Shown one piece after another: positions 489-41,377 of a stretch of DNA of 64,000 nucleotides. The stretch is from positions 48,918,001 to 48,982,000 of the forward strand of contig OX597817.1 in assembly GCA_951406725.2 (NCBI GenBank), given 5' to 3'. Source of the stretch: Octopus vulgaris (taxonomy: Eukaryota). The notes beneath the pieces are model-generated. The model did not search any database. It was not told the origin of the DNA and saw only the letters and a program-made list of their open reading frames with translations. Position 1 is the stretch's first letter. The number at the start of each line of letters is the position of its first letter. The position numbers were made by a program, and so were the translations under genes.

Positions 489-697
489 AAAAGGGGTAAC
501 CAACCGGCGGGTTAATTCACTAACCCGGACCCAAATTTCATCCAACCATCATTTATATTTTTAACTCCCATCCGCAAAATATATGTAAATCCATCCGTTT
601 TTCATATATAAGAAGCGTGTTTGTACCCTAAATGTCCCTTGTTTATCCTTGTAATGTCCCCTCTATGTAAACCTTTTTATAGGTAAATAAAGAAATA
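489..697 (+). mobile_element. 5'-truncated non-LTR retroposon 3' end (AATAAAGAAATA-tailed family)
   Basis: TSD tc(a/t)cttcgatgcttcc at 473-488 and 698-713; ends TGTAATGTCCCCTCTATGTAA-ACCT-ttttat-AGGT-AAATAAAGAAATA. Confidence 0.7.
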
Positions 698-792
698 TCT
701 CTTCGATGCTTCCTGTTAGTCAAATGTCCTTTTATTCTAATAGCTTCTTTCCTTGAACTGCTGCTCTCTGGAGCACACTACAATACTCTTTT

Positions 793-1178
793 CTTCTGGT
801 TCATTCATGAAAAGTTAAAGGACTGGGGAAAGGCAGAAATGTCAGATAGATGGGATGTTGTTGGAGGAGCAAGTGAAAGAACTTGAAAATAAACTTGGTG
901 ATGTATACGTGTTGCTTAGGGGAAGATTGGTACAGAAAAAGAGAAATAAACTCTGGAAAATATACGAGTTAAAATTTGGGGATTTCGTAGATTTTGCAGT
1001 AAAATAAGAAAAGGACAAGTAAGTGATGTTGACTGATGGGACAGTTAACATCACTTTCACCTCTCATCTATCACCTTTTTTTCCATCCTATCATTCGACT
1101 ATTTTTTTTTGATGTTTTGTGTCTCCAGTGTGTTGTAATGTCTTATCTATATAAAACCGTATGGTGAATAAAGAAATA
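793..1178 (+). mobile_element. 5'-truncated relative of the ORF1-only retroposon at 39718-41377
   Basis: TSD aatactctttt at 782-792 and 1179-1189; purine-rich open frame ends in TAA at ~1007; 3'UTR hairpin AAGTGATGTTGAC..GTTAACATCACTT is homologous to 41229-41263; same AATAAAGAAATA tail. Confidence 0.7.
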
Positions 1179-2027
1179 AATACTCTTTTAAGATTTCTGT
1201 CAATTAACGTCTTTTAAATTTGTAGGGCCCTTCATTGATGTTCCTTATGCTATAGTAACATCAAACGTTGTTTGAGATAAAAATTATAAAAATATTGCAA
1301 GATGAATCAATTGATTAAACTTCAATTAGAAAATGGTACTGGAAAGACTTCTGTCCCCCTCCCTCCATTTTCTCCCAAATTTGTTTAGTTTCATAATTAA
1401 TTTTTTTGCCAAAAATCGCCGTTTTTGGATACGGAGGTTCCGGAAAATTGCCAAAAATTGGCATTGTGAATTTTTTCCCCCCAACTTCTTCAATTTTAAC
1501 TTTTTTTCCAACACTAATCCTAAAACCGTAACTGTAAGTACAGAACTGTTTTGAAATGTCCGCATTTTTCCGTATATTTAAAAAACAAATTTGTAAAATT
1601 TTTTTGAAATTTTTTTCAGAATCATAATCTCCGTATTTTTCTGCATATTTTGAAAAAAAAAATTGTGTAAAAAGTTAGTGGGGTGGGGTGGGGGCAATTT
1701 AGAAATGTCGATTTTTGCCAATTTTTTGCATATTCGAAAAGCGGGGGTTGGTGTCGAAAAAAAAATTTTTTAAGGGTGATTGGCGGGGGAGGTGAAGTCT
1801 TGCCATGGTGCCATTAGAATTTGAATATAAATAAGCATTCAATTTTATCAAACCTCGCGTCGATAAAATTAAATGCTTATGTAATACAAATATTACAGTA
1901 AAAAAATAAATATCCATTAAAGACTGGAATTAGAAATAAAGAACCGCAAAACTTAGTATTTATTGAAGCCGATTCTAAAATGGGTTTGCATTTAATATGG
2001 CAAGTTGAATATTGCTAAACTCGCTTA

Positions 2028-2235
2028 GGCTGCGAGCTGGCAGAAACGTTAGCACACAAGACAAAATACGTAATGGCGTTTCTTCCAGCTTTACGCTCGG
2101 TGTGCATATGCTGTCGAGGTCGACTTTACCTCTCATCTTTTCAGGGTTGAAAACGAAATACTAGTTGAGCACTGGTAGTCGATGTAATTGACTTGCTCCG
2201 TCCCTTAAAATTGCTGGCTCTGTGTCAAAATTAGA
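2028..2235 (+). mobile_element. tRNA-derived SINE family A (Deu/Nin-like domain), older copy
   Basis: GGC.GCGAGCTGGCAGAA head, degenerate GCCTTTCATCCTTTCGGGGTCGAT core, AAATTGCTGGC tail running into (ATT)n. Confidence 0.75.
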
Positions 2236-2254
2236 ATATTATTACTATTGTTTA

Positions 2255-2600
2255 GGCGGCGAGCTGGCAGAATCGTTAGCACGCCGGACGAAATGTTTAG
2301 CGGTATTTCGCCCGTCGCTACGTTCTGAGTTCAAATTCCGCCGAGGTCGACTTTGCCTTTCATCCTTTCGGAGTCGATTAAATAAGTACCAGTTATGCAC
2401 TGGGGTCGATATAATCGACTAATCCGTTTGCCTGTCCTTGATTGTCCTCTCTGTGTTTAGCCCCTTGTGGGTTGTAAAGAAATAGGTATTTCGTCTGTCT
2501 TTACGTTCTGAATTCAAATTCCACCGAGGTCGACTTTACCTTCCATCCTTTTGGGGTCAATGAAATAAGTACCAGGCTTGAAACCAATATTATTACTATT
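2255..2600 (+). mobile_element. SINE A dimer (A2 unit plus 5'-truncated unit)
   Basis: A/B-box head, Nin-like core, tail ..TAAAGAAATA, then restart at GGTATTTCGTCTG. Confidence 0.85.
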
Positions 2601-2619
2601 GTTGATAATGTAATTGATT

Positions 2620-3420
2620 TGAATATTGAAAATGAATTGATCGCACGTGTTAAATATTCGGAATTTTCACTTTCACAAAAATGCAAGCCACAATTCGACT
2701 CCGTCCATGTACGAAACCGAATAAATGGAAGACTAGACGACTGACATTTACAAAAAAAAAAAAGAAGCAAATTGGCAAGCGAAGGATTAGAAACTGAAAT
2801 CTGAAGCAATGCATTATAACCAACTGATAACAGCGACGAAACTGTATCAACCATCAGAAACTGGATGACAAAGTTTGAAACTGAAGCAATATAAAAGCCA
2901 CTATAAGCATACTGAAGTTGATTGTTATTAGTGCACCTGGGAAAAGATTCAAGAATTCTGATGCTCCTAAAAATTACCAATTCCAAAAAAATGTAAACTC
3001 GTCATTAATATTATTTTCAGAATATTCGTTAATCATGACAAATCTTAAAGCACCTTTAAAAAAACTGACAAAAAAAATTAAATGACTGCCAATAAAACTT
3101 TAACGAGTTCAAACGAGTTGGTAATTATTAATTTTGCTGTCAAATTTTACGGGTGTAATATTCCTAAAGTATTACCAACAAAAATTTTGACTCAACTTTT
3201 GAATGTCATCGTGGCTTGACTCGAATAAAGCAAATGAGTTTTAGACACTGCTATTGGTGAGAAATACAAGCCTATATACGTGCAGCCGTTTAAATATCTA
3301 ACATGTGAATTGGTTGCTATTGCAACTGATAAAAAGTGTAATGAATGGCCAAAAGCATTTGTGCTAAGTCAAGGAATAGACATCGGCTACTCCGAACTAT
3401 CTATCTACTGTTATTTATGA
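2620..3420 (+). mobile_element. Decayed gypsy-type pol remnant (integrase zinc-binding region)
   Basis: ~3200-3290 translates ECHRGLTRIKQMSFRHCYW*EIQAYIRAAV, matching the H-x-G-xx-R-x-K...YW integrase N-terminal pattern; many stops. Confidence 0.5.
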
Positions 3421-3429
3421 CATCGCTCG

Positions 3430-3775
3430 TGCGTTTATACTGGTTTTAGCTTTAAGGTTTTAGGGTTAGGGTTAAGATGTCAGGGTTTTAGGGTTAGGGT
3501 TGTAATAAATGACAAACGAAATATACACTGCCGACTGTTGTTGTTGACAAACAATGGCAGTAATTTTATTCAGCTGAATACACGTCATTGATTGGTTGAA
3601 ATTACCGAAATAGGACAACTTTAACGTGAAATAACTTCGTAAATATAAGTTTTTCTCAAAAATGCCAAGAGTAAAAGATGTTTTATATTACACATTCTAA
3701 CAGTGTCCGAAGTTTGAAAGTGTTTAGTTACAAAAAAATATTTTTAAAAATTTGTAGGTCAAAAGGTAAAGATCC
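3430..3775. mobile_element. Partial GGATC-ended MITE with internal TTAGGG repeats
   Basis: Ends ..AAAGATCC like 8732-9141; shares the ACGTCA.TGATTGGTTGAAATT block with 8950-8975 and, inverted, with 58390-58420; TTTAGGGTTAGGG at 3459-3500. Confidence 0.6.
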
Positions 3776-3795
3776 CAATACATTTATATTTTGAA

Positions 3796-4180
3796 GGCGG
3801 TGAGCTGGCGAAAACGTTAGCACGTCGGGCGAAATGCTTAGTGGTATTTCGTCTACCTCTACGTTCTCAGTTCAAATTCCGCCGAGTTACGCACTGAGAT
3901 TGATATAATCGACTAATCCGTTTGTCTGTCCTTGTTTGTCCCCTCTGTGTTTAGCCCCTTGTGGGTAGTAAAGAAATAAGTATTTCGTCTGCCGCTACGT
4001 TCTGAGTTCAAATTACGCCGATGTCGACTTTGCCTTTCATTCTTTCGGGGTCGATTAAATAAGTATCAGTTATGCACTGGGGTCGATATAATCGACTTAA
4101 TCCGTTTGTCTGTCCTTGTTTGTCCCTTCTGTGTAGTAAAGAAATAGGAATTTCGTCTGCCTTTACGTTCTAAGTTCAAA
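3796..4180 (+). mobile_element. SINE A2 tandem (three partial units)
   Basis: Two internal AAAGAAATA|(G/A)G.ATTTCGTCTG junctions. Confidence 0.85.
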
Positions 4181-5216
4181 ACCACGTGGTTGCGAAGTGA
4201 ACTTCTTAACTACAGAGCCATGCCTGCACTTACATGGTAGAGATTATTGTATTGTAAGAATCCGCATTCTATTACTACAGCATTTAATCCCTCTTTCAAT
4301 TAGGTAGGGCTAACTTTTAGGGAATCTGCTGAATGAATTTGTCAAGTAATTTAACCTTCGAAATGATTCAATTACCCGGTCGTTTTATCTCTATGAACAT
4401 GTAAGAAAACCTACATATCTAGAACATAAATTCGGCAAAGTAGTTCCCTCACAAATCTGATTATAGAATTATTAAAAGCGGGGCTTCTGTATTTTACAGG
4501 GCCGATGAAAACGTTTGATATCTGAAAGTTAAATTCCTCATTGAAATGAACCAAGAAAATAATTTGCTGACAGTAACAATTATACAAACTACAGGGTATT
4601 GTAGTTCAGATCAGTCGAGAATTAAGGATTATTTATGGATAAAGCAACGTAGAATTCAGATTTGTTACAAGATACAAAATTTCCAAAATACAGTAACCGA
4701 ATCTCCGATAACATATTTAAAAGACAGATTGACATTTTTCTAGGAATTAAGCATATGTATTATAAGCTGTAAAATGCTGTGTACGCTGTTTGTTGATATA
4801 AAACTCTACTTATTTATCTATATATTATGTGTATATTCATCTATCTTAAATCTATATTTACCGATATAAAATCTTTGTATGCATGTATATACGTGTCTGT
4901 CTGTCTTTGATTACGACGGTAAGCAATTAAAATAAAGTGAAACAAACTTGAACATTTGTAACGTTATAAAAACATTAAAAAGTTTAGAGCAGAATCAACT
5001 TTAGCAAATTTTGGTTCTCGACGGAAAAGATAAGTAGATTTTTTGCATAAATTTACATACAATTAAGCTGCTTTAAGCTGTTTCATAACAAAAGGTGTAA
5101 GATATTTGGAACTAGTTAAAAATACATAGTTGAAGTAACAAATAAGCCCAGTCATATTGTAGAAAGTAGCCTTTTTTAAAGCTCAGAAGTTAAAATATAT
5201 GATTTTATACACAGCC

Positions 5217-5443
5217 TGGCCTTTTAGGCTGCCGGGTTCGATCTTTTAAACTTTTATTCGTTTTCTTTCTTTGTTTTCTTTTTATTTAAAAAAAAATTCT
5301 AGTTTAAAGGAAATTAATCATTGTATAAAATATTTTTAGTAAATTTTTAAAACGATATTCATACGAACTCGTGTAACATTTTTTTTGTTTGTCTCGTAAT
5401 GTCCCTTTCTATGTAAGATCATTTTGATCATAACAAAGATTTC
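5217..5443 (+). mobile_element. Short retroposon 3' end of the same tail family
   Basis: 15-bp TSD attttatacacagcc at 5202-5216 and 5444-5458; GTAATGTCCCTTTCTATGTAA-GATCA-ttt-TGATC followed by a degenerate AACAAAGA tail. Confidence 0.6.
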
Positions 5444-7769
5444 ATTTTATACACAGCCATTGTCAATGTTAGTTTGACAACATTAAAGTTAAGAAAAGTA
5501 TATGTAAATTGTTTTAGAATGATTCTTATCATTTAGTGTCTCAACCGCCGAATGGACTGTAACTTAGTATTCTATTTAACACCAGACCAGTAAGTTTTGA
5601 GGAAGGCGGCAAGTCGATTACATCGGCCCAGTAGTTGACTGGTACTCGTCTTATGGACCCTGAAAGGATCAAAGTCGATCTCAGTGACATTTGAATTCAG
5701 ACCGTGAAGCTTGAAGAAATGCTGCTAAGGAGAAAATGAGTCTAACCTGTCCGTTATTTTCACCATTTCATATAACAGATTTATTCCAAACTGCATTGTT
5801 TGTATCGTAGAAAAAAAAATAAATAAAAATCTCCATCGGCTTATTGGGATCATCTCACTTGATTCTTACACAAAAGGAAATTTTTATCAACTAACTGCTT
5901 CGATAATCGCAGTTGAGTGAAAATTTTCAACCCGCTATAAGGTATGTGTTAATTCCAACCGTATATGTATTCATTAAGCAGAAAATCTCACCTGAATCCT
6001 TTCTTCGCATTCATCTTATTGGCTTTCATTTATGATTCTTCTATTCTCCACTGAATAAATATTCCAGGTAATCCTTTTACAGTTTATTCAATCCTCAGCA
6101 ATATTATTACTATTTTGCTTGTCGCAGCGTTAGTGTTTCGAAGTGCTTGTTATGCTTTCAAAAATCTTAACTAAATCTAAACCATAATGGAGCGATGATA
6201 TGAATACCAAAATTGAAATAAGGAAATTTATAATTGTGGAATTTCCATGGGCTTCTCTAGTTTCGCTTTATATTATTCGATAAACTTCATGTCTCAATAA
6301 TATTCAATTTTAACAAAATGGAATTTTTACAGTTAAATTTATAAACTGAACACAATTGTTTAACCATTGCTTAGTATTTTCGTTCTTGTTTCCAGATTTC
6401 AGTTACATATTTTCAGGGACCATTGTCATAATTTGGAGCAGTTTTTCCTTCTCCCATTGAATTAAAAATAAATATACTTGCTTCATTTTTTTCTATAGCA
6501 ATTTTCTCTCAATTACTTTTGGAATAATATTAAAAAAGTTACAATATTTTCCGAAATTTGTGGTGAGAATGTGTATGCGTGGGCTTGCCAGTGTCACAAA
6601 GTTTTGATGTGTAGTAAAACATTTTAAATAGTACATGTAGATATAATAAATATAAACATGTTCGATTGCGCGATGAACAGCTGAGAAGTTAATAAAATAT
6701 TGAACAGAAGTTGAGGGACAGGCAAACATTTTTGAAACTCATAAAGTAGGGCAGAAGTATTAATTATTTTATAATTGGCGTCGCTCATTGGACTGTGGGC
6801 TATGCTAGAGGAACGCCATCCTGCAATACCATCGATTGACATTTCATAAGTTTTAAATATACAATTCACTTTCTTACGCGGGAACATTTATTGCTAAAAA
6901 GAAAATCATTATATTTGTGAGTCAAACAATACAATGGAAAGAAAAAAAAATTAAGAAAATTGATTGCTTTGCAATTTTCCCATTTTAACGTCACATAAAT
7001 CTGTCGATTACAGGAATTTTGTTTCGTCATATATTTTGTTTTGATTTTATCGAGTAAGTAAAACCGAGACTAGAAAGATAGGAATCGGACGTCCTCATCG
7101 ATTATTTCTAGGCTGCCTCGGGTTGTCTCAGCATCAGTTTCGACAGAGTATGTGCTCTGGATAAATTATTGGAAGAAAAGTAAATGGATACAAGCGCTAT
7201 GCTTCTAAATGCGTGCAAAACAATAAAATACATATTGATAGGAAAAACAATGAAATTTAAAAACAACAACAGAAAAACAACCTCTGGCATTAATGTAGAA
7301 CATTGCGATTATGACCCAGTTTAAACTATAGAATATCACTTGATTGATTTGTCTGTAATCTTGAGCAAATGATGACAATTCCTTACAGCATTCTTTTAGA
7401 ATTCGACGACAGAAAAACAATTATTTAAAATTTCCCTTCTCGCTATAATCGATAAATAGATAGTGAGGTCATTGAGAGAGAAGTAAAAGTGTTCATCAAT
7501 ATCAAAAGTAGTTTATAAATTATCAGAAACGTGGGAGTAAAGATCGATACATATTTCTGGTGTTTATGATATCGGAAAATAAGTGGAAATTTAAATCGTA
7601 TTATCTGTTATTTGACGTCAAATATTTACTATTATAAGTAGCTCTGAAATTTTGGGAGAGAGGACTAGTGGGTTACAGCGACCCCAGTGCTATACTGGTA
7701 CTTAATTTATCGACCTTTGCGAAATTTGAACTCAGAATGTAATGAGTCGGGACTATGGTTGCAGTCCAA

Positions 7770-7815
<46 letters not shown>

Positions 7816-7851
7816 AATCTCTGAGCGGGGTATAAACAGTAGCTGCACGAC

Positions 7852-8053
7852 ATCGTGAAGTATATTTGCCACTTCAATGTGGCTAACCCTTAAGGGTGGA
7901 TGCTACTGTAGCTTGTAGCCCCAGAAGGACACACTTTCTGATAGGGCACAGAAAGTGTGTCAATAGCCAGCTGGAAGTGTCCTCCTGGGGCTACAAGCTA
8001 CAGTAGCATCCACCCTTAAGAGTTAGCCACTTTTAAGTGGCAAATATATTTCA

Positions 8054-8057
<4 letters not shown>
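7852..8057. repeat. Nested fold-back (inverted repeat) embedded in (TA)n
   Basis: ~80-bp arms ATCGTGAA..GGACAC / GTGTCC..TTCACGAT; inner hairpin GACACACTTTCTG-8nt-CAGAAAGTGTGTC. Confidence 0.9.
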
Positions 8058-8101
<44 letters not shown>

Positions 8102-8140
8102 TATAATATATATAATAGTATATTTATATATATTATATTA

Positions 8141-8425
8141 TTTCAGTTTCTTTCTTTGTTGACTACAAATTTCATTTCGTTTTTGGATTTGGTTTGCAAA
8201 ATTCTTTATGTGAGTTCGTGTTTTGAAGTATATTTTGTGTCTGGGGAGAGTCGTTATATTTTAATACCTTGTTATTGAACACACTCACCGGTGAAATTCC
8301 CACTCATTTATTCATTTGTTTTTCTAAAATTTTCGTTGCGTCTTGCAACATTTTCAATTGTTGTTGAGTGTGTTAAATAATAAGGCACTAAAAGAGAATG
8401 ACACTCCCCAGACACCACAGAATAC
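8141..8425. mobile_element. Penelope-like terminal repeat fragment with local inversion
   Basis: 8231-8288 is inverted at 8364-8424; an opposite-orientation homolog lies at 54590-54790; degenerate hammerhead-like GTTGC-aagac-GCAAC-GAAA on the minus strand. Confidence 0.45.
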
Positions 8426-8731
8426 ACATTTTAAATTTGAATATGATATTCTAAATATGTATTTGCAGTTTTGTCTGTGGATCAGGAATTATATTTATCA
8501 CAAATTTCATAAATTATCGCTTAAAACTAGATGTTTTTAATGCTCATTAAATATTATTTGGAGAATTTTTTTTTCCAAAAGTTAAAATATGTTAGTTTAT
8601 GAATTGACTTTCTACACATAAACATTTACAGACCTGCATCTATATGCACGATATGATTGCATGATGGGTTTCATGTTTGTGTGAGGATGTCTTTATATTT
8701 ATCTACCGTCGTTTAGAGCAGAACATTTAGC

Positions 8732-9141
8732 GGATCTTTTCGGCTTGAACGGCAGTTTTTTCTAGCGGTGTCATATGAAATTGTCACCCATAATTATGAC
8801 CCTAGAATCGATCTATTGCATTTCAATCTGTTTTAGGGTTAGGGGTGGGGGAAGGGTATCTTTTTTTTCTTCACAGACGTAAATAAACCCAATCTGTTTC
8901 TTAAACGAGGGACATATTCATACGGCACAGAATGCTTTTTAATTCAATAGACGTCACTGATTGGTTGAAATTGCAGAAATTGAAGAAAAAAACAACAAAT
9001 ATCTTACAAACTATAGAATTTTCTCAATAAAGCCAAGAGAAAAAGATGTTTTATAAACACATTCTACCAGTATACGAAGTTTAAAATTTTTTAGTTACCT
9101 AGAAATTATGTTAAAAACTACCGTTCAAACCGAAAAGATCC
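8732..9141. mobile_element. Complete MITE, GGATCTTTTCGG TIRs, 8-bp TSD (Merlin-like)
   Basis: ~30-bp TIR GGATCTTTTCGG(C/T)TTGAACGG(C/T)AGTTTTT; TSD catttagc at 8724-8731 and 9142-9149; internal TTAGGGTTAGGG. Confidence 0.85.
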
Positions 9142-9357
9142 CATTTAGCTCCAGCGATCACCACCTTGCACAAGCATTCGATACTGTCCGCTTTGTCGAC
9201 GTCTTTCATGGCATTTGAAGTCTTCAACTAAGATTCCCAACATACAGTCAAGATAGGCATAAACGTTTTCTGTCTCTGTCAACTCCAACAAAACAATTAT
9301 TCAGCAATATATAGCTTAAAAGATCACGCGCGTCTATTTGAAATTAGTTATCACTGT

Positions 9358-10420: not shown

Positions 10421-10796
10421 AAAAATCCCTTGTTTCGCGAGGCCGTAACTTTGTCTTAGCTTTAAGTTTGTTCATGTATTTAAAAAATGGAAAAAAATTA
10501 GTTAATGGCATTGCTGGAACATTTAGTCTTGCTTATGGCAATTAAATTTAATCACTTATAGTCATTCAACAGATCACTTCCCTTCCAGTATGTCTTAAGT
10601 CATGCATATCAAACGCATTCGCCTGTGTAACATACGTTAAGTTTCCGAGGAAAAAGGTGATATATTACATGTTTCTAATTCTTTTCTGACATACCCCTCA
10701 TCTTGTATTAAACGGGGTCAACGTGAATCACTGGGTCGATGTAATCGAATAATCACCTCAAAACAAATTTCAGGCCTTGTGCCTTTAGTAGAAAGG

Positions 10797-10835
<39 letters not shown>

Positions 10836-10989
10836 TGCCTTATACCATTTAAAACTGAGCATTACTTCCTCTGCCTTTTCAGCCAAGCGTCATTTGCTAG
10901 AGAACTGAGCGTGACTCAGCCAGGAGCGCATTGCCTTCGCTATCGTCCACAGTCCATTTTATTCCGGCAGCTGGTTCATTCATCGCTTT

Positions 10990-11470
10990 CCACAGGACAA
11001 ACGATGACCAGAAAAAATAGCAGTAGTCTCTACAGATTACTTAAGATCATCGACAGGAGCAGAATCACAAACTTCAACGTCCTGAGAAGAAACAATCGGC
11101 ACAGCTTGCAGAAGATGGTGGCACAAAGAAGAGTGAGACTTGCAGGTCATGTTTTCCGCCTGGCAGAAGAACAAGTACCCAGGATGGCTATATAATGGGA
11201 TGGCTAGCGGAGGTAGGTGGGGCGAAGGAAGAAAGGTAGCCTCAAGAAGACATGATGTCCTAATACCTAAGACATCTATACAATAGGTAGCAGCAGAGGG
11301 AAGAAGGAAGTCAGGGAGCCTCAAGTAAGCATGATACCCCACCTTCAAAGAAGACCTGAGGCAGTATAACATCAACTGGGAAGATGCAGGTAACTTAACT
11401 CAAAACCGGGAAGAATTGGAGATATCTTGCTGCCCGATGTGCAGGCCAACTATACGGGAAGGACTAAGAC
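10990..11470 (+). mobile_element. RTE-clade LINE 3' fragment
   Basis: RITNFNVLRR..SLQKMVAQRRVRLAGHVFRL..VPRMAI..TFKEDLRQYNINWEDA, the typical RTE post-RT region. Confidence 0.8.
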
Positions 11471-12458: not shown

Positions 12459-12757
12459 TGAAAGGTAAAGTCGACCTCGGCGGAATTTGAACTCAGAACG
12501 TAACGGCAGACGAAATACCTATTTCTATTTCTTTATTACCCACAAGGGGCTAAACACAGAGTGGACAAACAAGGACAGACAAACGGATTAAGTCGATTAC
12601 ATCGATCCCAGTGCGTAACTGGTACTTAATTTATTGACCTCGAAAGGATGAAAGGCAAAGTCGACCTCGGCGGAATTTGAACTCAGAACGTAGCGGCAGA
12701 CGAAATACGGCTACGCATTTCGCCTGGCGTGCTAACGTTTCTGACAGCTCGCCGCCT
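12459..12757 (-). mobile_element. SINE A2 (full unit plus partial second unit)
   Basis: Reverse complement of the A2 consensus; tail-to-tail with 12010-12410. Confidence 0.9.
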
Positions 12758-13838: not shown

Positions 13839-14073
13839 AAGGCGGCGAGCTGGCAGAAACGTTAGCATGCCGGGCGAAATGCTCAGCAGTATTTCGACTA
13901 TCACTACGTTCTGAGTTCAAATTCCGCCGAGGTCGACTTTGCCTTTCATTCTTTCGGAGTCGATTAAAAAAGTACCAGTTACGCAGTGGGGTCGATATAA
14001 TCGACTTAATCCGTTTGTCTGTCCTTGTTTGTCCTCTCTGTGTTTAGCCCCTTGTGGGTAGTAAAAGAAATGA
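13839..14073 (+). mobile_element. SINE A2 monomer with TSD
   Basis: 16-bp TSD gctcctgcaacccctt at 13823-13838 and 14074-14089. Confidence 0.92.
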
Positions 14074-17588: not shown

Positions 17589-17823
17589 TATTTCTTTACT
17601 ACCCACAAGGGGCTAAACACAGAGGAGACAAACAAGGACAGACAAACGGATTAAGTCAATTACATCGAATCCAATGCGTAACTGGTACTTAATTTATCGA
17701 CCCCGGAAGGATGAAAGGCAAAGTCGATCTCGGCGGAATTTGAACTCGGAACGTAACGGCAGACGAAATACGGCAACGCATTTCGCCCGGCGTGCTAACG
17801 TTTCTGCCAGCTCGCCGCCTTCA
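17589..17823 (-). mobile_element. SINE A2 monomer with TSD
   Basis: 16-bp TSD aggatttgattatata at 17573-17588 and 17824-17839. Confidence 0.92.
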
Positions 17824-26540: not shown

Positions 26541-27527
26541 ACATATATATATATATATATAATGTGTGTGTGTTACGGGGACATAAACACTTTTAAAACA
26601 AGAGATTAATATAAGATTTTGCAGTCATTTTCGTACGTTAGTCATTCAATTTGATCATCGGGTCATTCAAATTCGCGAAAAAAATTAACGTCATGAAGTT
26701 GGTCATTCAAATTCGTTTTTTGATCATTCAATTTCACGCTTCGGTCAAAGAATTTGGCATTTACATCATTTAAATTAAAATACCCGTCGAGCGCATTCAA
26801 ATTCGAGTTCGGAATAAGTTTATTCAATTTAGCACTAATTTTACATGTGTCTTTTAACTCACAAGTGGATGTTAAAAGTGACAAATTTAAATGACATGTT
26901 GTGTCATGCAAATTTTGTTATGTTGTAGTTATAAGAAGTAAATAAATTACGTGTCTCTTTTGTCCACGAAAGGTCATAGCAACAGTCGTAACCAGTCGGT
27001 ATCAGTTGCATTTTATATCCCTTTCTCTTACGACAAACTTGTAATCCCTGAGCCACGCGTACGGTACATGCGTATATCGGACGAAGATAGAGCAAGGCTG
27101 GTTGATGCCTTCGAGGGGAATCAAAAGGATTACCTGAAACTAACAGACACACCTGGCATTAAAAGGAGTAGTGTCCGATCCATAGTAGAGACCTACCTAC
27201 TGTCTGGGCGGCGCCACAAGTTGCCCAGAGGAGATGCCCACCACGTTAAGGTTGATGAGGAAATACGAGCCAGGCATCAGCTGATTAATGATGCCAACTC
27301 ACTGACAACACTCCAACAGATGAAGAAGGACTTAGAGGCAGCATTGTCCAGAAAGCCACCTGCTTCCGTGTCTGCAATCTCCCGCGCTCTAGATGGGATG
27401 TTGATAACTATGAAGTTGGCTGAAGACATTCCAGATGCAAGACATGCTCCAAGAACGCCGGAAAAGCGTTGAGTACGCGCAATGGTTCGTGGAAGAGGGA
27501 ATCGTTGGCCATTGCGTATTCATTGAT

Positions 27528-27760
27528 AAGGCGACGAGCTGGCAGAAACGTTAGCACGCCAGGCGAAATGCTTAGCGGTATTTCGTCTGCCGTTACGTTC
27601 TGAGTTCAAATTCCGCCGAGGTCGACTTTGCCTTTTATCCTTTCGGGGTCGATAAATTTAGTACCAGTTGCGCACTGGGTCGATGTAATCGACTTAATCT
27701 GTTTGCCTGTCCTTGTTTGTCCCCTCTGTGTTTAGCCCCTTGTGGGCAGTAAAGAAATAT
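27528..27760 (+). mobile_element. SINE A2 inserted in the transposase DDE motif
   Basis: 17-bp TSD attgcgtattcattgat at 27511-27527 and 27761-27777. Confidence 0.93.
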
Positions 27761-28417
27761 ATTGCGTATTCATTGATGAATGTGGGTGCAACATTTGGAC
27801 CAGGCTGTCTTTTGGACGAGCCCCTCGAAGAGTTCCTGTTGTCAACCGTCAGCGTGGGAAAAAACTGTCACGTCACTTTCGCGGTGTCGGGAGAAATCGG
27901 TCTGATTCACCACTCCATTGCGAACAATACCGTTACACGAAACGCTTTTGCGGAGTTCTTGGCGGAAACAATTCGAGCATGTGCCGACATGTTCCCGGCG
28001 GATGAATCTGTCTACTTGATCTACAACAACTCGTGGCCACACGTTCGTGCCGAGCTCCCAGCTGACGCCTCCCTACTCGGCGTTTCTTAATGTACAGAAA
28101 TGGTGCACTCTGCCTTTAAGGCGGCTGTCAAGCGGGACGTCGTTCGTGCTGAGCTGCAGCAAAGAGTTGGCGGCCAGGCAGCTGCCGAAGAAGCCGGAAT
28201 AACCATGGAAGAATGGCGAGTACATATCATACAACAGGTTGCAAGGTGTAACGTCGACGCTATCACTCCAGAAAATTGAGTTCGTTGGTATCTACACACA
28301 TAGACCTACCCCACCCCGGGGTTCCCCGACCACCAAGAAATAGACGGCTAAATCCTCTCAAACGAACTCTCCTTATCAAGACTGTAAATCAATAATTATC
28401 TTAGTGTATATAATACC

Positions 28418-28644
28418 TATTTCTTTACTACCCACAAGAGATAGAGGGGACAAACAAGGACAGACAAACGGATTAAGTAGATTACATCGACCCCAGTGCG
28501 TAACTGGTACTTAATTTATCGACCCCGAAAGGATGAAAGGTAAGGTCGACCTCGGCGGAATTTGAACTCAGAACGTAACGGCAGAGGAAATACGGCTACC
28601 CATTTCGCCCGGCGTGCTTACGATTCTGCCAGCTCGCCGCCTTG
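28418..28644 (-). mobile_element. SINE A2 monomer with TSD
   Basis: 16-bp TSD tagtgtatataatacc at 28402-28417 and 28645-28660. Confidence 0.93.
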
Positions 28645-31035: not shown

Positions 31036-31064
<29 letters not shown>

Positions 31065-32461: not shown

Positions 32462-32479
<18 letters not shown>

Positions 32480-32497
<18 letters not shown>

Positions 32498-32872
32498 TGA
32501 AGTTGTGTGAGTGTCTGTCTCCTACGATTTAGATTCCTAACTACTCCCACATTTTGCGGTGCAGTTTAACCAAAACCGGGTATCTTTTAGTCGTGATTTA
32601 TATCGAGCCCTTCTGGGTATTAGCGCGCGTCTACGATGAGTCTACGATTTTAAAAATAATTTACCATAATTTTTTTCTATTTTAAAGCATATTTTTTAAA
32701 TAAAGGGAAGTAACTGTCTAAAAATGTCTACGATGAATCAACGATTTAAAAAATTTACCATAATTTTTTTCCCAATTTTAATGCATTTTTTGCTGTTTTT
32801 TGGCTATAACTCTCTAAAAATGCTTTATAGTTATTTCCCTTACAAACCCGAGCAACGCCGGGCGATACTGCT

Positions 32873-32874
<2 letters not shown>
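32480..32874 (+). mobile_element. Non-autonomous Helitron
   Basis: 5' TATATATAAAAGTGAAG..GTCTGTCT; 3' CCCGAGCAACGCCGGGCGATACTGCT(G/A)G|T, the same end as the element at 45499. Confidence 0.8.
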
Positions 32875-32908
<34 letters not shown>

Positions 32909-32913
<5 letters not shown>

Positions 32914-34145
32914 GTTGCACAAAATAACGGAAACACATAGCATCATAATTTTGAAATATCTATGAAACCATGAAAAGCTTGTTTACTTCTATGTTTTTTA
33001 TTTATTATTAGTGTTGCTTAATATGTTTTGCTAAAATTGCTGTTTCTTTTCAGATATCATTAGAAAAAGATAATTAATATTCATTAAAATGTCAGATCTA
33101 TCGGACTTTCAAAGATGTCAAGTTGTTAGTGCTCGTATGGCAGGTGCTAGCGTGACGAAAGCAACCGAAATGTTTGGTGTATCAAGAAGTACTGTCTCGA
33201 AAGTAAGCCTTTGAGAAAGGGAAAAACCACCTCGTCGAAACAAAACTCCAGAAGAAAACCAACACTTTCAGATAGGGACCGTCGGACTCTTACGCGAATT
33301 GTTAGAAGGGATCGCAAAAGTACAGCTCCCAAAATTACTGCAGAACTTAATGACCACCTCAAGAACCCAGTTTCCACAAAAGCTGTTCAGCGGGATATGC
33401 ACAAAGCCAGATCTAACGGGAGGGCTGCAATCAGAAAACCACTACTTTCAAAAGCAAGCGTTGCAAAGCGTTTAGAGTGGAGTAAAAACCTACAGAATTG
33501 GTCCCTAGAGCAGTGGAAGAATGTTATTTTCTCGAACAGGTCATCCTTTACCTTATTTCCGACCACTGTCCGAGTATACGCGTGGAGACAGCCAAAAGAA
33601 GCCTTTGATCCAGACTACCTTCTTCCAACTGTTAAACATGGAGAAGGATCTGTGATGATCTGGGTGGGGGGCTATATCTTGGAAATCCGCCGGCTCATTG
33701 GTTTCCCTTCATGGCAAGACTATTTAAGCATTTTATCTGATCAAATTCATCATATGGTTGTGCAACTGCTTCCGGAGGGAAACGCAATCTTTCAAGATGA
33801 TAGTGCATCAATTCACAAAGCTAAAGTTGTTACTGAATGGCATGAGGAACATTTTAGTATAGTTGAACATCTTATCTGGCCTTCAAAGTCCAAAGATCTC
33901 AAAATTATTGAACATTTATAGATCATTTTAGAAAAACAAGTAAGGAGTCGACATACTCCACCATCATCACTACAAGAACTAGAGACTGACTGTTTTAGCT
34001 GAAGAATGGACAAAAATTCCTTTGGAAACAATTCAAACTTTGTACGAGACCATAGCTCATAGAATTCAAGCTGTGATTACTGCCAAAGGCAGTCCTAACC
34101 CATATTAATATAAATTTGTTTTAAATTTTAAGGTGCTTCTATTAT
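32909..34145 (+). mobile_element. Tc1-like (DD34E) transposon, pseudogenised
   Basis: TA|CAGAAGTTGCACAAAATAA TIR; ORF 33089-34108 MSDLSDFQR..GRAAIRKPLL..WKNVIFSNRSSF..FQDDSASIH..WPSKSKDLKIIEHL; frameshifts; 3' TIR truncated by (TA)n. Confidence 0.92.
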
Positions 34146-34150
34146 ATATA

Positions 34151-34186
<36 letters not shown>

Positions 34187-34212
34187 TGTATGTATGTATG
34201 CATGCATGCATG

Positions 34213-34707
34213 GTCGTGTCGTCGGCGACTAAACCGGCAACCCCACCAAGCTTGCTTGGTGAGGAGGGTGTTTATTGAACACCCTGTGGGATGAAAAACA
34301 AAACTCGTCAAAGGGCGGAGGAACTCTTGAGAATCAACGGCCATCCAATAAATGTCTTAGGGCTGTATCATGCGCGGGGACATAGAAATAATTGGACTGA
34401 ATACCCAATCGCGCGGTTAAACCATTGGGAGTGAAGGACTCTTAGCCTTTGTTAGGGCATCCTTCTAGGAGAAGGTAACTCAGGTAACTGGGATAACTCC
34501 GACATAAAACCTGCGGCTCAGTGGTTACCGATGATGTTGACTTGTTATTCTTTTTGGATTATGGCTGCTGTTGCTTAGTGAGAGGGATTGACTCAGTGCA
34601 CAGCCTTTCCTCACTTTAAAAAAATCTTCTTGCATAGACATTGCACGATAACAACATTGATTGAGCTTCGTGCAATGGCCATACTCGATAATGAGGGGGC
34701 AGCCACC
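34213..34707 (+). mobile_element. Probable LINE (RTE-like) 5' fragment inserted in microsatellite
   Basis: GC-richer block bounded by microsatellites; starts GGTCGTGTCGTCGGCGACTAAACCGGCAACCCC; the RTE-like assignment is only a recollected resemblance. Confidence 0.35.
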
Positions 34708-34755
<48 letters not shown>

Positions 34756-34834
34756 ATATGTATATGTGTATATATGTATTTATATATATATTTATATATG
34801 CTCATGTATATATATATATACATATATATATTTA

Positions 34835-34874
<40 letters not shown>

Positions 34875-34967
34875 CTCATGTATATATATATATTTATATA
34901 TGTACGTTTTATATATATATATATATATACACTCACACTTTTATATATACTTATACATATATATATG

Positions 34968-35000
<33 letters not shown>

Positions 35001-35057
35001 CATACATACGCACACACATTATATACATACATATATATATGTATACGTATGTTTTAT

Positions 35058-35102
<45 letters not shown>

Positions 35103-35155
35103 CATATACACACGCATCTAGATAAATACACGCGCGCGCGCGCATTCACACACAT
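34708..35155. repeat. Compound (TA)/(TG)/(CA) microsatellite
   Basis: Direct inspection; explains six spurious ORFs. Confidence 0.95.
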
Positions 35156-36322
35156 AGGCGTTCCCGATTCGTGTGTAATCACCGTAATTGAAAGCAATGT
35201 TTACGAATGTCCATAGAAATGTTGATGAATATGTATGTCAGCTGTATTAAATAAATATGGTAAGCAAAATTAATATGTCACATTATATATATCCAAGTCA
35301 TTTAATTAATGCTAATTATTACTTATTTGGTTTTTAAAATGCTAATTAATCCTCGGAAATTTCCCCGGTGCTGCTAAATGTAAATATTTTATGCGAAAAA
35401 AAAAATCGAGATAAATATATAAGGTCGGACCACTTACCTACTTCGTAACTTTCCGTTATGTTTTTATATGTATATATACATATGTATCAAGTAGATGTTT
35501 CTGTTTGCTTGTGGTGGTGTGTGGTTTTATCACAGAAATTTAGCATTTCATGCCAAATGTTGAAAAGTTTTAAAATTACTTGCTTATTTTGTAAAATCAA
35601 ACCAAACAGGCTGATGGTCTCTGATTCAAACTATTTTACATAATAAATATTGATAATAAACGGGTGAGATAGTGTTTTTAGTTTTTGAAATTAAAAAAAA
35701 GGATTTAAAATGTTTTTATGTTCAGAATAGTTTATAAATATGAATAATAATCAACGCAAACGTGTTATAAAAAGCAGAAATTTATCAACCTGTGAACTAA
35801 AAACTTAGTTTTCCAGTGACTATAAACTATTCGTTAGTGAATAAATCTGCTGTTTACATTCTCGGAATGTTATTGATGTTCGTTCATTCTCTAGATAAAT
35901 TTTTGTTTATATAGAGTAGTTTTGAAGAGAACCAGCCTCGATATGGCTGTGACCTGGTCAACTTCCATATTAGCTCTGCTCATACAGGTGTGTACCGGTG
36001 TGCGCGTGAGTGACTACCTGTGAGGAAGAGGGAGAGAGAAAGAGTGAGAATATGAGTTTTTCTTTTATATTAGCCGCCTGAAGCTATGCCTGCAACATTT
36101 TATTTTCCTTATCCTCGGGTTAAAAAGTCAAGAAGATCACCTGGAGTGTCTGTCAGCACTGACAAGTTATTCAGGTTATACGTGCTTTTTAAATATAGGT
36201 ATGCGTAAAAACATGCATATATATTTACAACACGTAACGAAAGTCTGGGACTGTTTTAAGTATAAACATCTTAGAACCATACGTCAAGGCAACAACCGCG
36301 CAAGCGAATATTATTATCATTG

Positions 36323-37130
36323 CTGGCAGAAACGTTAGCACGCCGGGCGAAATGCGTAGCCGTATTTCGTTACGTTCTGAGTTCAAATTCCGCCGAGGTC
36401 GACTTTGCCTTTCATCCTTTCGGGGGTCGATTAAATAAGTACCAGTTACGCACTGGGGTCGATATAACCGACTTAATCCGTTTGTCTGTCCTTGTTTGTC
36501 CTCTCTGTGTTTAGCCCCTTGTGGGTAGTAAAGAAATAGGTATTTCGTCTGTCTTTACATTCTGAGTTCAAATTCCGCCGAGGTCGACTTTGCCTTTCAT
36601 CCCTTTGGGGTCGATAAATTAAGTACCAGTTGCGTACTGAGTCGATCTAATCGACTGACCCCCTCCTCCAAAATTTCGAGCCTTGTGCCTGGAGTAGAGA
36701 AAAAAATTATTATATCGAAGACGGCGAGCTAGCAGAGTCATTAGCACTCTGGACGATATGCTTAGCCGTAATTCTCCCGTCGCTACGTTCTGAATGCAAA
36801 TTCGTCGAGGTCGACTTTGCCTTTCATCCTTTCGAGGTCGATAAAATATGTACCAGTGGAATCCTGGGGTCGATGTAATCGACTAGCCACTCTCCCAAAA
36901 ATGTCAAGCCTTCTGCCTATAATAGAATGGATTATTATTATTATTATTATTATTGTTATTATTATTATTATTATTGAGTGAGAGAGCAGTGCATGCCATC
37001 AAAGTGACACTGAGTTCAAATTCGGTCAAGGTCGACCTTTCATCGTGTTGGGAATTATAAAATAAATTCCAATTGAGCATTAGGGGGTCAATTTTATCAA
37101 TTATAACCCTCCCCACAAATTTCAGGACTT
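36323..37130 (+). mobile_element. SINE A cluster (A2+A dimer, A, partial A)
   Basis: AAAGAAATA|GGTATTTCG junction at ~36539; second head at ~36720. Confidence 0.85.
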
Positions 37131-37641
37131 AACATTTAGTATTCATATTTGGAAACACTACTATTCAAGGCAATGCGCGGGGGTACGCGAATATGTATGG
37201 ATATTTACTGCGAGATAGTAAACGACAAACCTGTAACTATGACTAGACTACAACCTACAACACCTTCCTTCTTTCTTCCTCCCCTTCTTCCTTCGTCTCC
37301 TTCTTCCCTTCTTCCCAAACAACTCCACCCACTTCTCACTCTTGAATCTTTGACTTCCTTTTCTTATGCCTGTTCTCATATTCATGTGTGTCGATCTGTA
37401 TCGGAGAAGAAAAAATGCAATCAAATCCGTGTTATGGGCGTGGAGGCTTATATTTTATTTTAAAAATCTTAAATGTTTTTGTGTGCGGAAAAATCAGACA
37501 CAAAAGCTCGCATTGTAGAGCGAAACAAGAAAATAAAACAGGTTGAAGCCAATATTTACTAGCAAAGATTTTAAGCGAGGCTCTGAAAAGAAAATTTGTT
37601 TCCATAAAAATGAATAATGTGAATATCAAGTTAAAATTGTA

Positions 37642-38167
37642 CAGTGATATCACGATAATTACAATTGGGCAGTGACATCACGATAATTACATTTGGGCAG
37701 TGATATCACGATAATTACAATTTGGGCAGTGATATCACGATGATTACAATTGGGCAGTGACATCACGATAATTACAATTGGGCAGTGATATCACGATAAT
37801 TACAATTGGGCAGTGACATCACGATAATTACAATTGGGCAGTGACATCACGATAATTACAATTGGGCAGTGACATCACGATAATTACAATTGGGCAGTGA
37901 CATCACGATAATTACAATTGGGCAGTGATATCACGATAATTACAATTGGGCAGTGATATCACGATAATTACAATTGGGCAGTGATCTCACGATAATTACA
38001 ATTGGGCAGTGATATCACGATGATTACATTTGGGAAGTGATATCACGATGATTACATTTGGGAAGTGATATCACGATGATTACAATTGGGAAGTGATATC
38101 ACGATGATTACAATTGGGAAGTGATATCACGATAATTACATTTGGGCAGTGATTTCACGATAATTAA
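37642..38167. repeat. 28-bp minisatellite, ~19 copies
   Basis: Unit CAGTGA(T/C)ATCACGATAATTACAATTGGG in direct tandem with no spacers. Confidence 0.97.
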
Positions 38168-38641
38168 CATGGAGAAAAATCGGGAAACCGTGATTGAAAG
38201 AATCTTCGAAAATTGCATGTGGTGTTTCAAGGAAAAAAATTACATTTTAAGGGTGAAATGATAAGTGATGTTACATTTCGTGGGAAAACTTTGAAAACCA
38301 AAGCTTTTATGCTGAATAATACGAGCAATTTATTTGGAACAGACGGGATAGAATTAATTATTTAACTGAGGAGACTTTATCCGTTCTTCCGCCAGTACAA
38401 ATAAGGAATTAAAGAAAAGAATTAAAAAAGATTTTTCCTGAAGTTTTTTCTAATGAATTAGAAATTATCGCTAGTGAAAGTTGTGATTTTACACAAATAT
38501 GAAGATGGTTGCTTGAAAGCTGTAGCCCATACTTCGCGTTAGAGAGAAAGGAAGAGAGAGAGAGACTGACAGCCAGAGAAAGAGAGAGAGAGGGGGAAGA
38601 GAGAATGTGTATGCGTGCGTGCGTGTGTGTCTATGTGTGTG

Positions 38642-38706
<65 letters not shown>

Positions 38707-38889
38707 CTATATATATCTATCTATCTATCTATCTATCTCTCTCTCTCTATATATATATATATATTTTTTTTTTTCTAATGCCAAATATGCCGAAAAATTG
38801 GACATATTGTCCATTAACCATATAATTTTTCCATAATATGCACGCTACTCGAAAAAAGGTGGACAGAAATTTCTAAAAAATTCCATTAT

Positions 38890-38947
38890 TACCATATCGG
38901 ACCGATTTCAGGGTTAGCTTATAACAGCCCTCCCTTCGTCAGTGATA
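38890..38947 (-). ncRNA. Minimal type-I hammerhead ribozyme, copy 1
   Basis: UAUCA-CUGACGA-AGGG..CCCU-GAA-AUCGG-U-CCGAU-A-UGGUA: all core nucleotides and stems I, II, III present. Confidence 0.8.
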
Positions 38948-39364
38948 CATGTGGCAAAAGAAATAAATGAGATACTTACTCATACCCCTGGAAGAAGCAA
39001 ACACTAAGTCATGAGCACAATTAAGTACCCCAAATACATCCAAAATAGAAATACTCTAGCCCATTCGAGACACGTGCGATTTGAACTGATGCTCTCACAG
39101 AGTGAAAGATTCCGGAAGTGAACGCTTAAATTTATATATCTAATGTAGGATAAAATTCTTTTCCAAAAAATTATTTTCCAAAAAAATTTTATCAATGTCC
39201 AGCATATTAAAAAATACCTTTTAAAGGTTAAAATTATAAACAATTCATAAATAAGGGCAAACGAAAAAAATTCTGTATTTGGGGTACTTAATTGTGCTCA
39301 TGACTTAGTGTTTGCTTCTTCCATGGGTATGAGTAAGTATCTCATTTATTTCTTTTGCCACATG

Positions 39365-39422
39365 TATCACTGACGAAGGGAGGGCTGTTATAAGCTAACC
39401 CTGAAATCGGTCCGATATGGTG
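39365..39422 (+). ncRNA. Minimal type-I hammerhead ribozyme, copy 2
   Basis: CUGACGA 39370-39376; stem II AGGG/CCCU; GAAA 39403-39406; palindromic stem III; predicted cleavage after A39417. Confidence 0.8.
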
Positions 39423-39717
39423 ATAATGGAATTTTTTAGAAATTTCTGTCCACCTTTTTTCGAGTAGCGTGCATATTGTGAAAAAATTATATGGTTAATG
39501 GACAATATGTCCAATTTCTCGGCATATTTGGCATTAGAAATTTTTTCGTTTGCCCTTATTTATGAATTGTTTATAATTTTAACCTTTAATGGTATTTTTT
39601 AATATGCTGGCCATTGATAAAATTTTTTTGGAAAAGAATTTTTCGAAAAAAATTTTATCCTACATTAGATATATAAATTTAAGCGTTCACTTCCGAACTC
39701 TTTCACTCTGTGAAAGC

Positions 39718-41377
39718 CTTTTGTTCGAGCCGCACGTGTTTATTGTAAGTTGCCAATTATTTGCTGTTGAATTTGCTGTTGAACGTTTTGTGATACGGGT
39801 TTTTGTTATACTGTTTTTTGTTCTGTTGGCCGTTGTCTGTCTGCGTTGAGACAGACAAAAAGTGGTGGACCGCCTCTCCCTAATGGGAGAGATGGCTGAA
39901 GAAAGGCTATTCGAGAGTCTATCGGAGGCATCGACCTCCGAGGACGAGCTAATTGGTGCCGTCAATAAGAAGGATATAAAGGTCGGTAAGACGTATGCTG
40001 GAGCAGCAAGGAAGACGGAGGAAAAGGAGATAGACCTGGAAAAGTTGCCAGGCTTCCAGGCATATATGACGAAGGAAGGAGGAGAGGTAAAACTATTACC
40101 ACCAGAAAAACGTGGTGAATGGTTTGAGAAAAGAGTTATTAAATACCGGACATACGTAAACGATAACAAGAGAGTGGAGATGATAAAAATGGAAGATATT
40201 GAGGAGGCGTTAAGGAGAGTGGAAGAAGAAATAGTATTTGTGGCGAGAGGTAGTGAGTTCGAAACGATAATGGTGCAGTTCGGAAATAAGAATATGGCGA
40301 GAAAAATGGCAGCAAAGGCGATCAAAACAGAAAAGGTAATCTTATTACCAACATATATGAACAAGAGAACCACAAGAATAAAAGTGGAGGGATACCCCCC
40401 CCCCCCACATAGAAGGTGAATGGGTCGTTGCAGCGGTAATAAAAGAAGTCGAAGAAGAGGTAGACATCTTGCAGGCTACCGTAAAGAGTGAAGGCTGGCG
40501 AGGTAAGACGCTTGAAATAAGTGTACAAGCGGAGGAGGGTACACTCGAAAGAATGACCGACAACGTAAACATGGGAAACATTGTAATGAGAGTATGGGTG
40601 GAGGGCAGAGCACCAAGATGCTATAAGCGTGGCCTGAGGGGCCACATAAGAGCTTACTGCCCTCCCCCACAAAAGGAAACTGTGAACCAGGAAAAGGAGG
40701 AGGTGGAGCAAAAACAAGTTGAGGAGGAAGAAACTTAGGAGGAGGAAGCTCAGACTGGATGGGAAGATGTAAGAAAGAAGAGAAAAAGAAGAAAAGTGAA
40801 CTATGGTGAACCCCAACCCACCCCAACACCACCCGCACCCTCTGAGTCCCATCCTTCCCCTACAAACAGTGATTCTACCCACTCCCCGCCTACAAGAAAA
40901 CCAAAAAAAAATAATGCAGACACACAAAGTAAACAAGACCCCAAGCCCCATATTTTATGTTTTGTGAAAAGGGAGGACACGAAGGATTCGAAAGACGTAA
41001 TAGATAATTATTCATGGTATGAGAGAGCAGATGGGAGTTATGCGGTGGTGCCTAGGGAGCAAATGGAAGGAATTATGGCGAAGCGTGTAAATGAGGGCGT
41101 GAAAGTGATTAAGGTAGCATTTACGGATGAGACGGTGAGAGAGTATGAAAGGAAGGCTAAGAGAATGATAAAGAAATATGGCTTTTGATTGGAGATGATA
41201 AATGACGATAGGTTATAAAGGACAGGTAAGTGGTGCTGGCGGAAGGGGGCGTTAGCATCACTTTCATATTATCATTTTCAAAATTTCATCTTACATACTT
41301 TTATTTTATAATGTTCTATGTCCCCAATGTCTTGTAGTGTCCACTCTATGTCGCCCCTAGTGGGTAATAAAGAAATA
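39718..41377 (+). mobile_element. Complete ORF1-only non-LTR retroposon (HAL1-like, Tx1/L1-type ORF1)
   Basis: 17-bp TSD tttcactctg(t/c)ga(a/g)agc at 39701-39717 and 41378-41394; T-rich 5'UTR, single ORF, ~190-nt 3'UTR, AATAAAGAAATA end; no room for EN/RT. Confidence 0.85.
39883..41188 (+). pseudogene. ORF1p-like protein (~430 aa): RRM-like region, CCHC zinc knuckle, acidic/basic/Pro-rich linker
   Basis: Three ORF-track pieces join into one frame with a +1 slip in C12 (40395-40406) and one TAG (40736-40738); RTTRIKVEGYPPHI..MRVWVEGRAPRCYK(R)GLRGHIRAYC. Confidence 0.8.

Follow-up and report, generated by a model that had tools for sequence, protein, structure and literature searches.

Insertions sharing a 3′ end in the window

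A 64,000-nt stretch of the Octopus vulgaris genome (contig OX597817.1, positions 48,918,001 to 48,982,000; hereafter the window) holds four insertions bounded by target-site duplications (TSDs) and 19 tails of a short interspersed element (SINE A2), the ends of which follow one structured 3′ signal. An earlier note on this DNA had ascribed the signal to a single unseen autonomous long interspersed element (LINE). We analysed these ends in the window and at genome loci retrieved for comparison, which carry L-numbers. The insertions and their signals are as follows (ORF, open reading frame; UTR, untranslated region).

489–697, + strand: 5′-truncated copy of an autonomous Tx1-like family, 3′ UTR only; TSD 473–488 / 698–713
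638–697, + strand: 3′ signal of this copy, with upstream motif, hairpin 671–674/681–684, hexamer 686–691, and end at 697
793–1178, + strand: 5′-truncated member of an ORF1-only family that measures about 1.70 kb at full length; TSD 782–792 / 1179–1189
1122–1178, + strand: its 3′ signal, with 3-bp hairpin 1156–1158/1163–1165 and hexamer 1167–1172
5217–5443, + strand: 5′-truncated copy of a second autonomous Tx1-like family; TSD 5202–5216 / 5444–5458
5383–5443, + strand: its 3′ signal, with 5-bp hairpin 5417–5421/5425–5429 and mutated hexamer 5432–5437
39718–41377, + strand: full-length 1.66-kb ORF1-only (HAL1-like) element; TSD 39701–39717 / 41378–41394
39883–41188, + strand: ORF1 of 39718–41377, broken in that copy
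41321–41377, + strand: its 3′ signal, with hairpin 41353–41356/41362–41365 and hexamer 41366–41371
39091–39107, − strand: empty paralogous target site, a single copy of the 17 bp duplicated around 39718–41377
13839–14072, + strand: full-length SINE A2 monomer; 16-bp TSD
17589–17823, − strand: full-length SINE A2 monomer; 16-bp TSD
27527–27759, + strand: full-length SINE A2 monomer with Tx1-like tail; 17-bp TSD
28418–28644, − strand: SINE A2 monomer, 5′ arm of the hairpin deleted; 16-bp TSD
2427–53951: span of the 19 SINE A2 tails, with + strand ends at 2484, 3978, 4146, 12238, 12409, 14072, 18081, 18263, 27759, 30009, 30193, and 36538, and − strand ends at 12526, 17589, 28418, 43269, 52633, 53663, and 53894

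The four insertions and the 11–17-bp TSDs given for them in the earlier note were all located, and pairing of their hairpins was confirmed. When re-measured, the TSDs were 16 bp with one mismatch (489–697), 11 bp exact (793–1178), 15 bp exact (5217–5443), and 17 bp with two mismatches (39718–41377). Because an inverted paralogue in the window (39091–39107) holds the 17-bp target of 39718–41377 only once, the duplication at this element arose on insertion. The same element is surrounded by a repeat, several hundred bp long, that is present in both inverted and direct orientation (window about 38950–42050).

Relatives of 489–697 and 5217–5443 have variable 5′ ends and the ORF2 C-terminus upstream, indicating that both are truncated LINE copies. 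5217–5443 matches the intact element L366 with 83% identity over 115 nt, and its terminus, which had been taken as degenerate, is not a decayed GAAATA but for the most part the sequence in which its family normally ends, AATAAAGATT(T/C)(C/T). 793–1178 and 39718–41377 share 70% identity over the last 170 nt and belong to one ORF1 lineage; thus, the five sequences that had been called otherwise different include a related pair. The five items are two 5′-truncated Tx1-like 3′ ends, one truncated and one full-length ORF1-only member, and a SINE with a Tx1-like tail.

SINE A2 monomers were 227–235 bp long with TSDs of 16–17 bp, and the genome contains roughly 100–300 SINE A2 tails per Mb. Most tails have the hexamer AGTAAA, and they have no T-run terminator. 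A- and B-box-like motifs were seen in the SINE head by eye only, and ARAGORN and Rfam tRNA searches gave no match. The single consensus previously proposed for all ends is exact in 489–697, 793–1178, and 39718–41377, whereas SINE tails have a spacer one base shorter, and the hairpin said to pair always is lost in two of them (4146 and 28418). By eye, 9 of the 19 window tails run into an internal site of their own SINE head instead of unique flank. These belong to dimers whose two units meet at a single internal position of the head (units ending at 2484, 3978, 4146, 12238, 12526, 18081, 30009, 36538, and 53663). Some whole dimers are flanked by a TSD of their own, and another type of tail, rich in ATT, terminates one of them; the Tx1-like tail can therefore be internal. 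We also searched the window with a covariance model, which was partly built from such ends. It recovered 23 matches at E < 1e-5, namely the 19 SINE tails and the four other ends, with nothing else below E 0.1 (next E, 0.11).

The 3′ cassette and its insertion junction

The shared end is a cassette of about 45–60 nt that consists of a pyrimidine/GU-rich motif, a 3–5-bp stem with a 4–6-nt loop, and a 12–16-nt A-rich spacer to the end. Typically, the hairpin is followed by A(A/G)TAAA and six further bases, with no poly(A). The final six bases are family-specific and not always GAAATA; it is their position that is fixed. In the genome (2.8 Gb, 227 contigs), a tight pattern had 62 exact matches, while the reversed control had 0.

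To locate the junction, we took 443 pattern-positive ends found with a permissive pattern (false matches included), of which 62 had an exact 12–22-bp TSD in non-repeated flanks. Counted from the hexamer's first base, the left edge of the TSD lay at +12 in 31 of these 62 insertions and at +10 to +15 in 52; most shifts from +12 were a mismatch or chance identity at the TSD edge. TSDs were mostly 13–18 bp and started directly after the cassette. The last six bases are absent from the pre-insertion flanks, and the TSD starts T-rich, not A-rich. A runs of at least nine bases occurred at 2 of the 443 ends, and at loci picked by reverse transcriptase (RT) similarity the longest A run past the hexamer was at most five in 39 of 39 ends. 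The absence of a poly(A) tract reported earlier therefore stands, and neither terminal repeats nor poly(A) were present at the examined ends. L1-style pairing of poly(A) with a T-rich primer was not seen at the analysed junctions and was rejected. Xenopus Tx1L, too, is not known to carry a poly(A) tail. The last six bases of the tail were duplicated at the junction in three cases (window 12526 on the − strand, L239, and L247), a pattern expected if the template slips when reverse transcription begins.

Such a fixed terminus could also be produced by an RNA 3′-processing signal, if AATAAA with TGTA upstream directed a cut six bases downstream and the RT copied from the RNA end. The hexamer is in register across nearly all families, with TGTA motifs upstream, and TA or CA forms the last two bases of many ends. 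However, the SINE, which has an RNA polymerase III-type head, shows the same ends with mostly AGTAAA, and no poly(A) was copied. Six bases is less than the usual 10–30 nt between AAUAAA and the cleavage site. Moreover, a SINE-targeting LINE family with a longer spacer and no in-register hexamer still ends in GAAATA in 28 of 28 copies. We therefore regard processing as an unlikely origin of the ends, although it is the rival to which we give most weight.

Autonomous Tx1-like families ending in the cassette

When pattern matches were extended upstream, they ran into ORF2 sequence, and protein searches gave intact 5.4-kb elements that end in the signal and encode ORF1 and an ORF2 of 1133–1140 residues. 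In Pfam, ORF2 of L115 and L118 has an APE endonuclease, an RT, and a C-terminal zf-RVT. The best solved relative of ORF2 was human L1 ORF2p (E 8e-67 for the whole protein and 5e-33 for the RT region), with R2 ranking behind it. Among named proteins, the one closest to the RT came from Argonauta hians (64%). The RT-bearing partner that the earlier note expected to be probably L1/Tx1-like thus exists, being L1-group by its RT and Tx1-like in its architecture.

We also obtained a sample blind to the tail by using the RT of an outside, U2-flanked Keno-like element as the query and taking 40 of the 113 scored matches, spanning ORF-length classes. Thirty-nine of the 40 loci end in hairpin, hexamer, and six bases, and the remaining one is interrupted. 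ORF2 was open over at least 1100 codons at 29 of the 40 loci, and RT identity to the Keno-like element was 40–44%. A quick tree in which 17 RTs were placed (L066, L197, and L157 were left out for short RT coverage) grouped the 17 RTs and two outside proteins as one clade (SH-aLRT 99). The putative assignment as Tx1-like rests on architecture, targeting, and this level of RT identity, not on a reference tree.

The hairpin sequence is particular to each autonomous family, and the target often is as well. The shared 3′ end belongs to the whole Tx1-like clade, not to one LINE. That all ends fit one model would agree with a single autonomous LINE mobilising all five sequences, but many families are intact, and the four non-SINE items have different best partners. 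The single-partner model was rejected on these grounds, and we give it next to no credence.

Targets by family include the SINE head, (TC)n, (TATC)n, (ATT)n, and other repeats. In the SINE-head-targeting family, the same seven bases follow in 27 of 28 copies. Complementarity between the target and a short 3′ UTR segment, located about 80–88 nt before the end, might guide both the site and the end point throughout the clade. Exact complements of 9 and 8 nt occur in two SINE-targeting subfamilies and one of 7 nt in a Penelope-targeting family, with a permutation p of about 0.017 for that slot, which was picked after seeing the data among four slots tried and in which related pairs drive the signal. 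Over 27 ends, however, the mean longest complement was 4.9 nt for the own target and 4.4 nt for others, and microsatellite-targeting families had none. A clade-wide guide of this kind is improbable; as a general explanation, it was rejected because it is limited to two lineages.

Several further features of these families were observed. A young 5.44-kb family (L112–L117 and L401–L420; e.g. C9:14299900–14308600) inserts at one base of the head of a second abundant SINE. At the 5′ junction of this family, a target-like stretch stays constant even in copies with a different local target, and a 9-nt target complement lies in the 3′ UTR about 80 nt before the end. Several Tx1-like families share one repeated insertion site (L061–L069, L127, and L129); at L064, a Penelope-like ORF (RT plus GIY-YIG) is present, with a putative link to that target. 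Outside cephalopods, a search for the signal gave no match below E 0.4 in 34 of 80 metagenome loci, which are only about 25–30% identical and many of which have no 3′ end, so that this negative carries little weight. L264, on a metagenome contig, is a Keno-like element in U2 snRNA flanks with an A-rich end and no octopus signal. A large sister group with about 53% RT identity (P0003–P0080) was found on long ENA contigs.

Hairpins, passengers and a candidate mechanism

To examine pairing, we defined 21 end clusters by TSD or position after ORF2, with no hairpin criterion. A stem of at least 4 bp ending no more than 3 nt from the hexamer was present in 19 of the 21 clusters, compared with 7.5 ± 2.1 in dinucleotide shuffles (maximum 14 in 1000), and upstream control windows had stems in 1, 5, and 6 clusters. 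In a sequence-only MAFFT alignment of 34 ends, 72% of cells were paired versus 57% when shuffled, and covariation was 0.41 versus 0.22, which 0 of 500 shuffles reached; slid registers scored lower. A structure-fitted alignment gave 82% paired, which is a biased measure. About eight distinct stem sequences were seen. Hairpin types track RT subclades, between which the stem sequence differs with pairing kept. These results indicate that a 3′ stem-loop with compensatory changes is present across families.

Likeness between RT-less passengers and autonomous partners is confined to the very end, the last 24–60 bases. The last 46 nt of 39718–41377 are 96% identical to the autonomous L369, the last 24 nt of 793–1178 are 96% identical to a (TC)n-targeting autonomous family, and the ORF1-only L182 matches a SINE-targeting family with 91% identity over 44 nt. 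SINE A2 matches L128 over 56–60 nt (82–90%) and L395 over 46 nt (89%). In a refined target test restricted to complex targets and a tighter offset, 3 of 43 ORF1-only copies occupied target sites specific to two autonomous families whose hairpins differ (null mean 0.06, maximum 1), and by eye L002 shares the target of a third autonomous family. The earlier proposal that a LINE mobilises a SINE, ORF1-only elements, and truncated fragments through the signal holds insofar as the signal is common to RT-bearing LINEs, ORF1-only elements, and the SINE; two of the five items, on the other hand, are merely truncated autonomous copies.

The ORF1-only passengers form a lineage of their own. The family of 39718–41377 is multi-copy, with lengths of 1.65–1.70 kb, identities of 69–94%, and TSDs in many copies; in the window copy, ORF1 is broken by a frameshift in a C run (40395–40406) and a stop (40736–40738). 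A second family consists of 1.70-kb TSD-bounded copies with ORF1 homology and no ORF2 (L164, L169, and L181). No ORF2 match was found in the window, and among 42 further ORF1-only loci, ORF2 matches were found in five, none of them between ORF1 and the end. ORF1 of these elements is 29–49% identical to autonomous Tx1-like ORF1s, and 13 ORF1-only ORF1s formed a clade apart from 15 autonomous ones (support 1.0). The median dN/dS was 0.13 over 44 pairs, with dS often above 1.5, for copies picked for open frames (9 candidates dropped). The lineage is old and under purifying selection. zf-CCHC was detected in 22 of 26 ORF1s, and intact relatives have one CCHC knuckle. The predicted ORF1 fold is two RNA recognition motifs (RRMs) in tandem (model pLDDT 81.5), with tandem RRM proteins as best matches; an RRM fold with a CCHC knuckle in ORF1 is a Tx1-clade feature. 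Young ORF1-only units also occur in head-to-tail arrays with a period of about 1.6–1.75 kb and many open ORF1s (L451–L462; e.g. C8:32265500–32275400).

Could the common end reflect descent only, with each LINE copying itself in cis and the hairpin having no recognition role? The 17 placed RTs do form one clade, and truncation of a LINE fully accounts for two of the five items. In contrast, the RT-less SINE and ORF1-only elements carry just the terminal cassette, with TSDs, and stems change on both sides. Since RT-less passengers carry the cassette, this explanation is largely refuted, and we consider it highly improbable.

Recognition of the cassette by the enzyme is the reading that we favour. 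The elements of the clade share this poly(A)-free cassette of about 45–60 nt, and it is likely that their ORF2 proteins recognise it on the RNA and begin target-primed reverse transcription a set distance away from it. By analogy with stringent LINEs (PMC4176376, PMC3472496), ORF2p would bind the cassette, and the stem would be read mainly as structure and not as sequence, since its sequence changes between RT subclades while pairing stays. The endonuclease, which in each family likely picks the target, would nick it, and cDNA would start 12–16 nt past the stem. Transcripts likely run past the element end, and the enzyme, not the RNA end, would set the start, because repeats or tandem arrays harbour many of the copies and a T-run terminator is missing from the SINE tail. 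RT-less passengers may take up the terminal cassette of one partner and be copied in trans, probably by more than one family. A broader version, which we put forward tentatively and with somewhat more doubt than belief, is that animal L1-group RTs start cDNA at a measured internal position of a read-through RNA without poly(A) or terminal repeats; that a portable hairpin cassette of about 45 nt is read by shape, so that several enzymes, each with another target, serve a single passenger tail; and that the ORF1-only lineage persists by swapping its cassette.

Several results weigh against cassette recognition as set out here. Two of the 21 end clusters had only a 3-bp stem. Two of the five measures applied to the alignment of 34 ends did not exceed shuffles (143 and 118 of 500), and RNAalifold predicted no consensus pair on the MAFFT alignment. 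Because the families are related, alignment cells and stem changes are not independent. Some SINE copies with TSDs have the 5′ arm of the hairpin deleted (28418). A first, cruder target-sharing test was not significant (4 of 82 versus a null of 2.6). Mismatches at the first TSD bases leaned weakly, 7:1, to the family consensus in the 3′ copy (6 were uninformative), a slight hint that one or two further RNA bases may sometimes be templated. As for the RT phylogeny, the quick tree does not join the 17 RTs with the Keno-like group in one supported branch.

Animal L1-group elements are textbook relaxed LINEs that read poly(A), and HAL1 is poly(A)-tailed. The Tx1 clade (Tx1L, Keno, Kibi, Koshi, and crocodilian Tx1-Mar) and SINEU have been described (PMC4494074). 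Like that clade, the octopus elements are L1-group LINEs with an APE endonuclease, with families that target transposons or microsatellites and passengers that share targets. The TSD of SINEU-3 is 16 bp, all SINEU groups end in poly(A), and no LINE with the SINEU-1 3′ end was found in that study (PMC4494074). Unlike SINEU, the octopus passengers end without poly(A), in a structured tail that their partners also have. Closer in this respect are LINE1-1_ZM with ZmSINE2/3 in monocots and L1-1_CR with SINEX-3 in Chlamydomonas, L1-clade LINE/SINE pairs that likewise share a tail (about 45–80 nt) with a hairpin and compensatory changes (PMC3472496, PMC3747384). The survey of Ohshima in 2012 lists just three SINEs with L1-clade tails, all plant or algal (PMC3472496, PMC3747384). 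The monocot and Chlamydomonas pairs end in repeats, whereas the octopus signal lacks a terminal repeat and extends over an animal clade of many families.

HAL1 (half-L1), HeT-A, and Ag-Sponge are ORF1-only LINEs (PMC5753468, PMC5786205). The octopus ORF1-only elements resemble them in being non-autonomous, encoding ORF1p only, and having TSD-bounded full-length copies; they differ in being Tx1-like-derived, in lacking poly(A), in saturated synonymous divergence, and in cassettes that match different partners. ZfL2-1/2 and UnaL2 are stringent L2 LINEs that recognise the cognate loop strictly and end in short repeats (PMC4176376). Octopus ORF2 is similarly predicted to read a 3′ stem-loop copied by SINEs, but it belongs to another clade, and cross-family mobilisation is suggested. 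Repeat annotation of O. vulgaris counted 13 recently active L1-Tx1 families and many unclassified SINE families, with tails and SINE partners not described in the available portion (PMC13282606). Neither this tail nor an octopus SINE with a Tx1-type tail was described in the literature searched; Repbase, Dfam, subscription journals, and supplements lay outside that search and may contain these families. Targeting by Tx1 elements, LINEs reduced to ORF1, and stringent tails were all known before; what appears to be new is that LINEs of an animal L1-group clade share tails with SINEs in the stringent fashion. With its many families, its defined, covarying tail free of poly(A), a highly abundant partner SINE, and its ORF1-only passengers, this clade allows the 'stringent ancestor' hypothesis for L1-group RTs to be tested in animals. 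As a natural enzyme series with different targets and swapped tails, it also separates RNA recognition from target choice.

Two other kinds of element were noticed. L074:3676–7964 is a 4.3-kb TSD-bounded element with a distinct 6–7-bp stem and a divergent ORF1. In the window, RTE-type LINE-like and Tc1/mariner transposase-like fragments were recognised by eye at 10641–11399, 26942–28090, 33151–33921, and 47297–47791.

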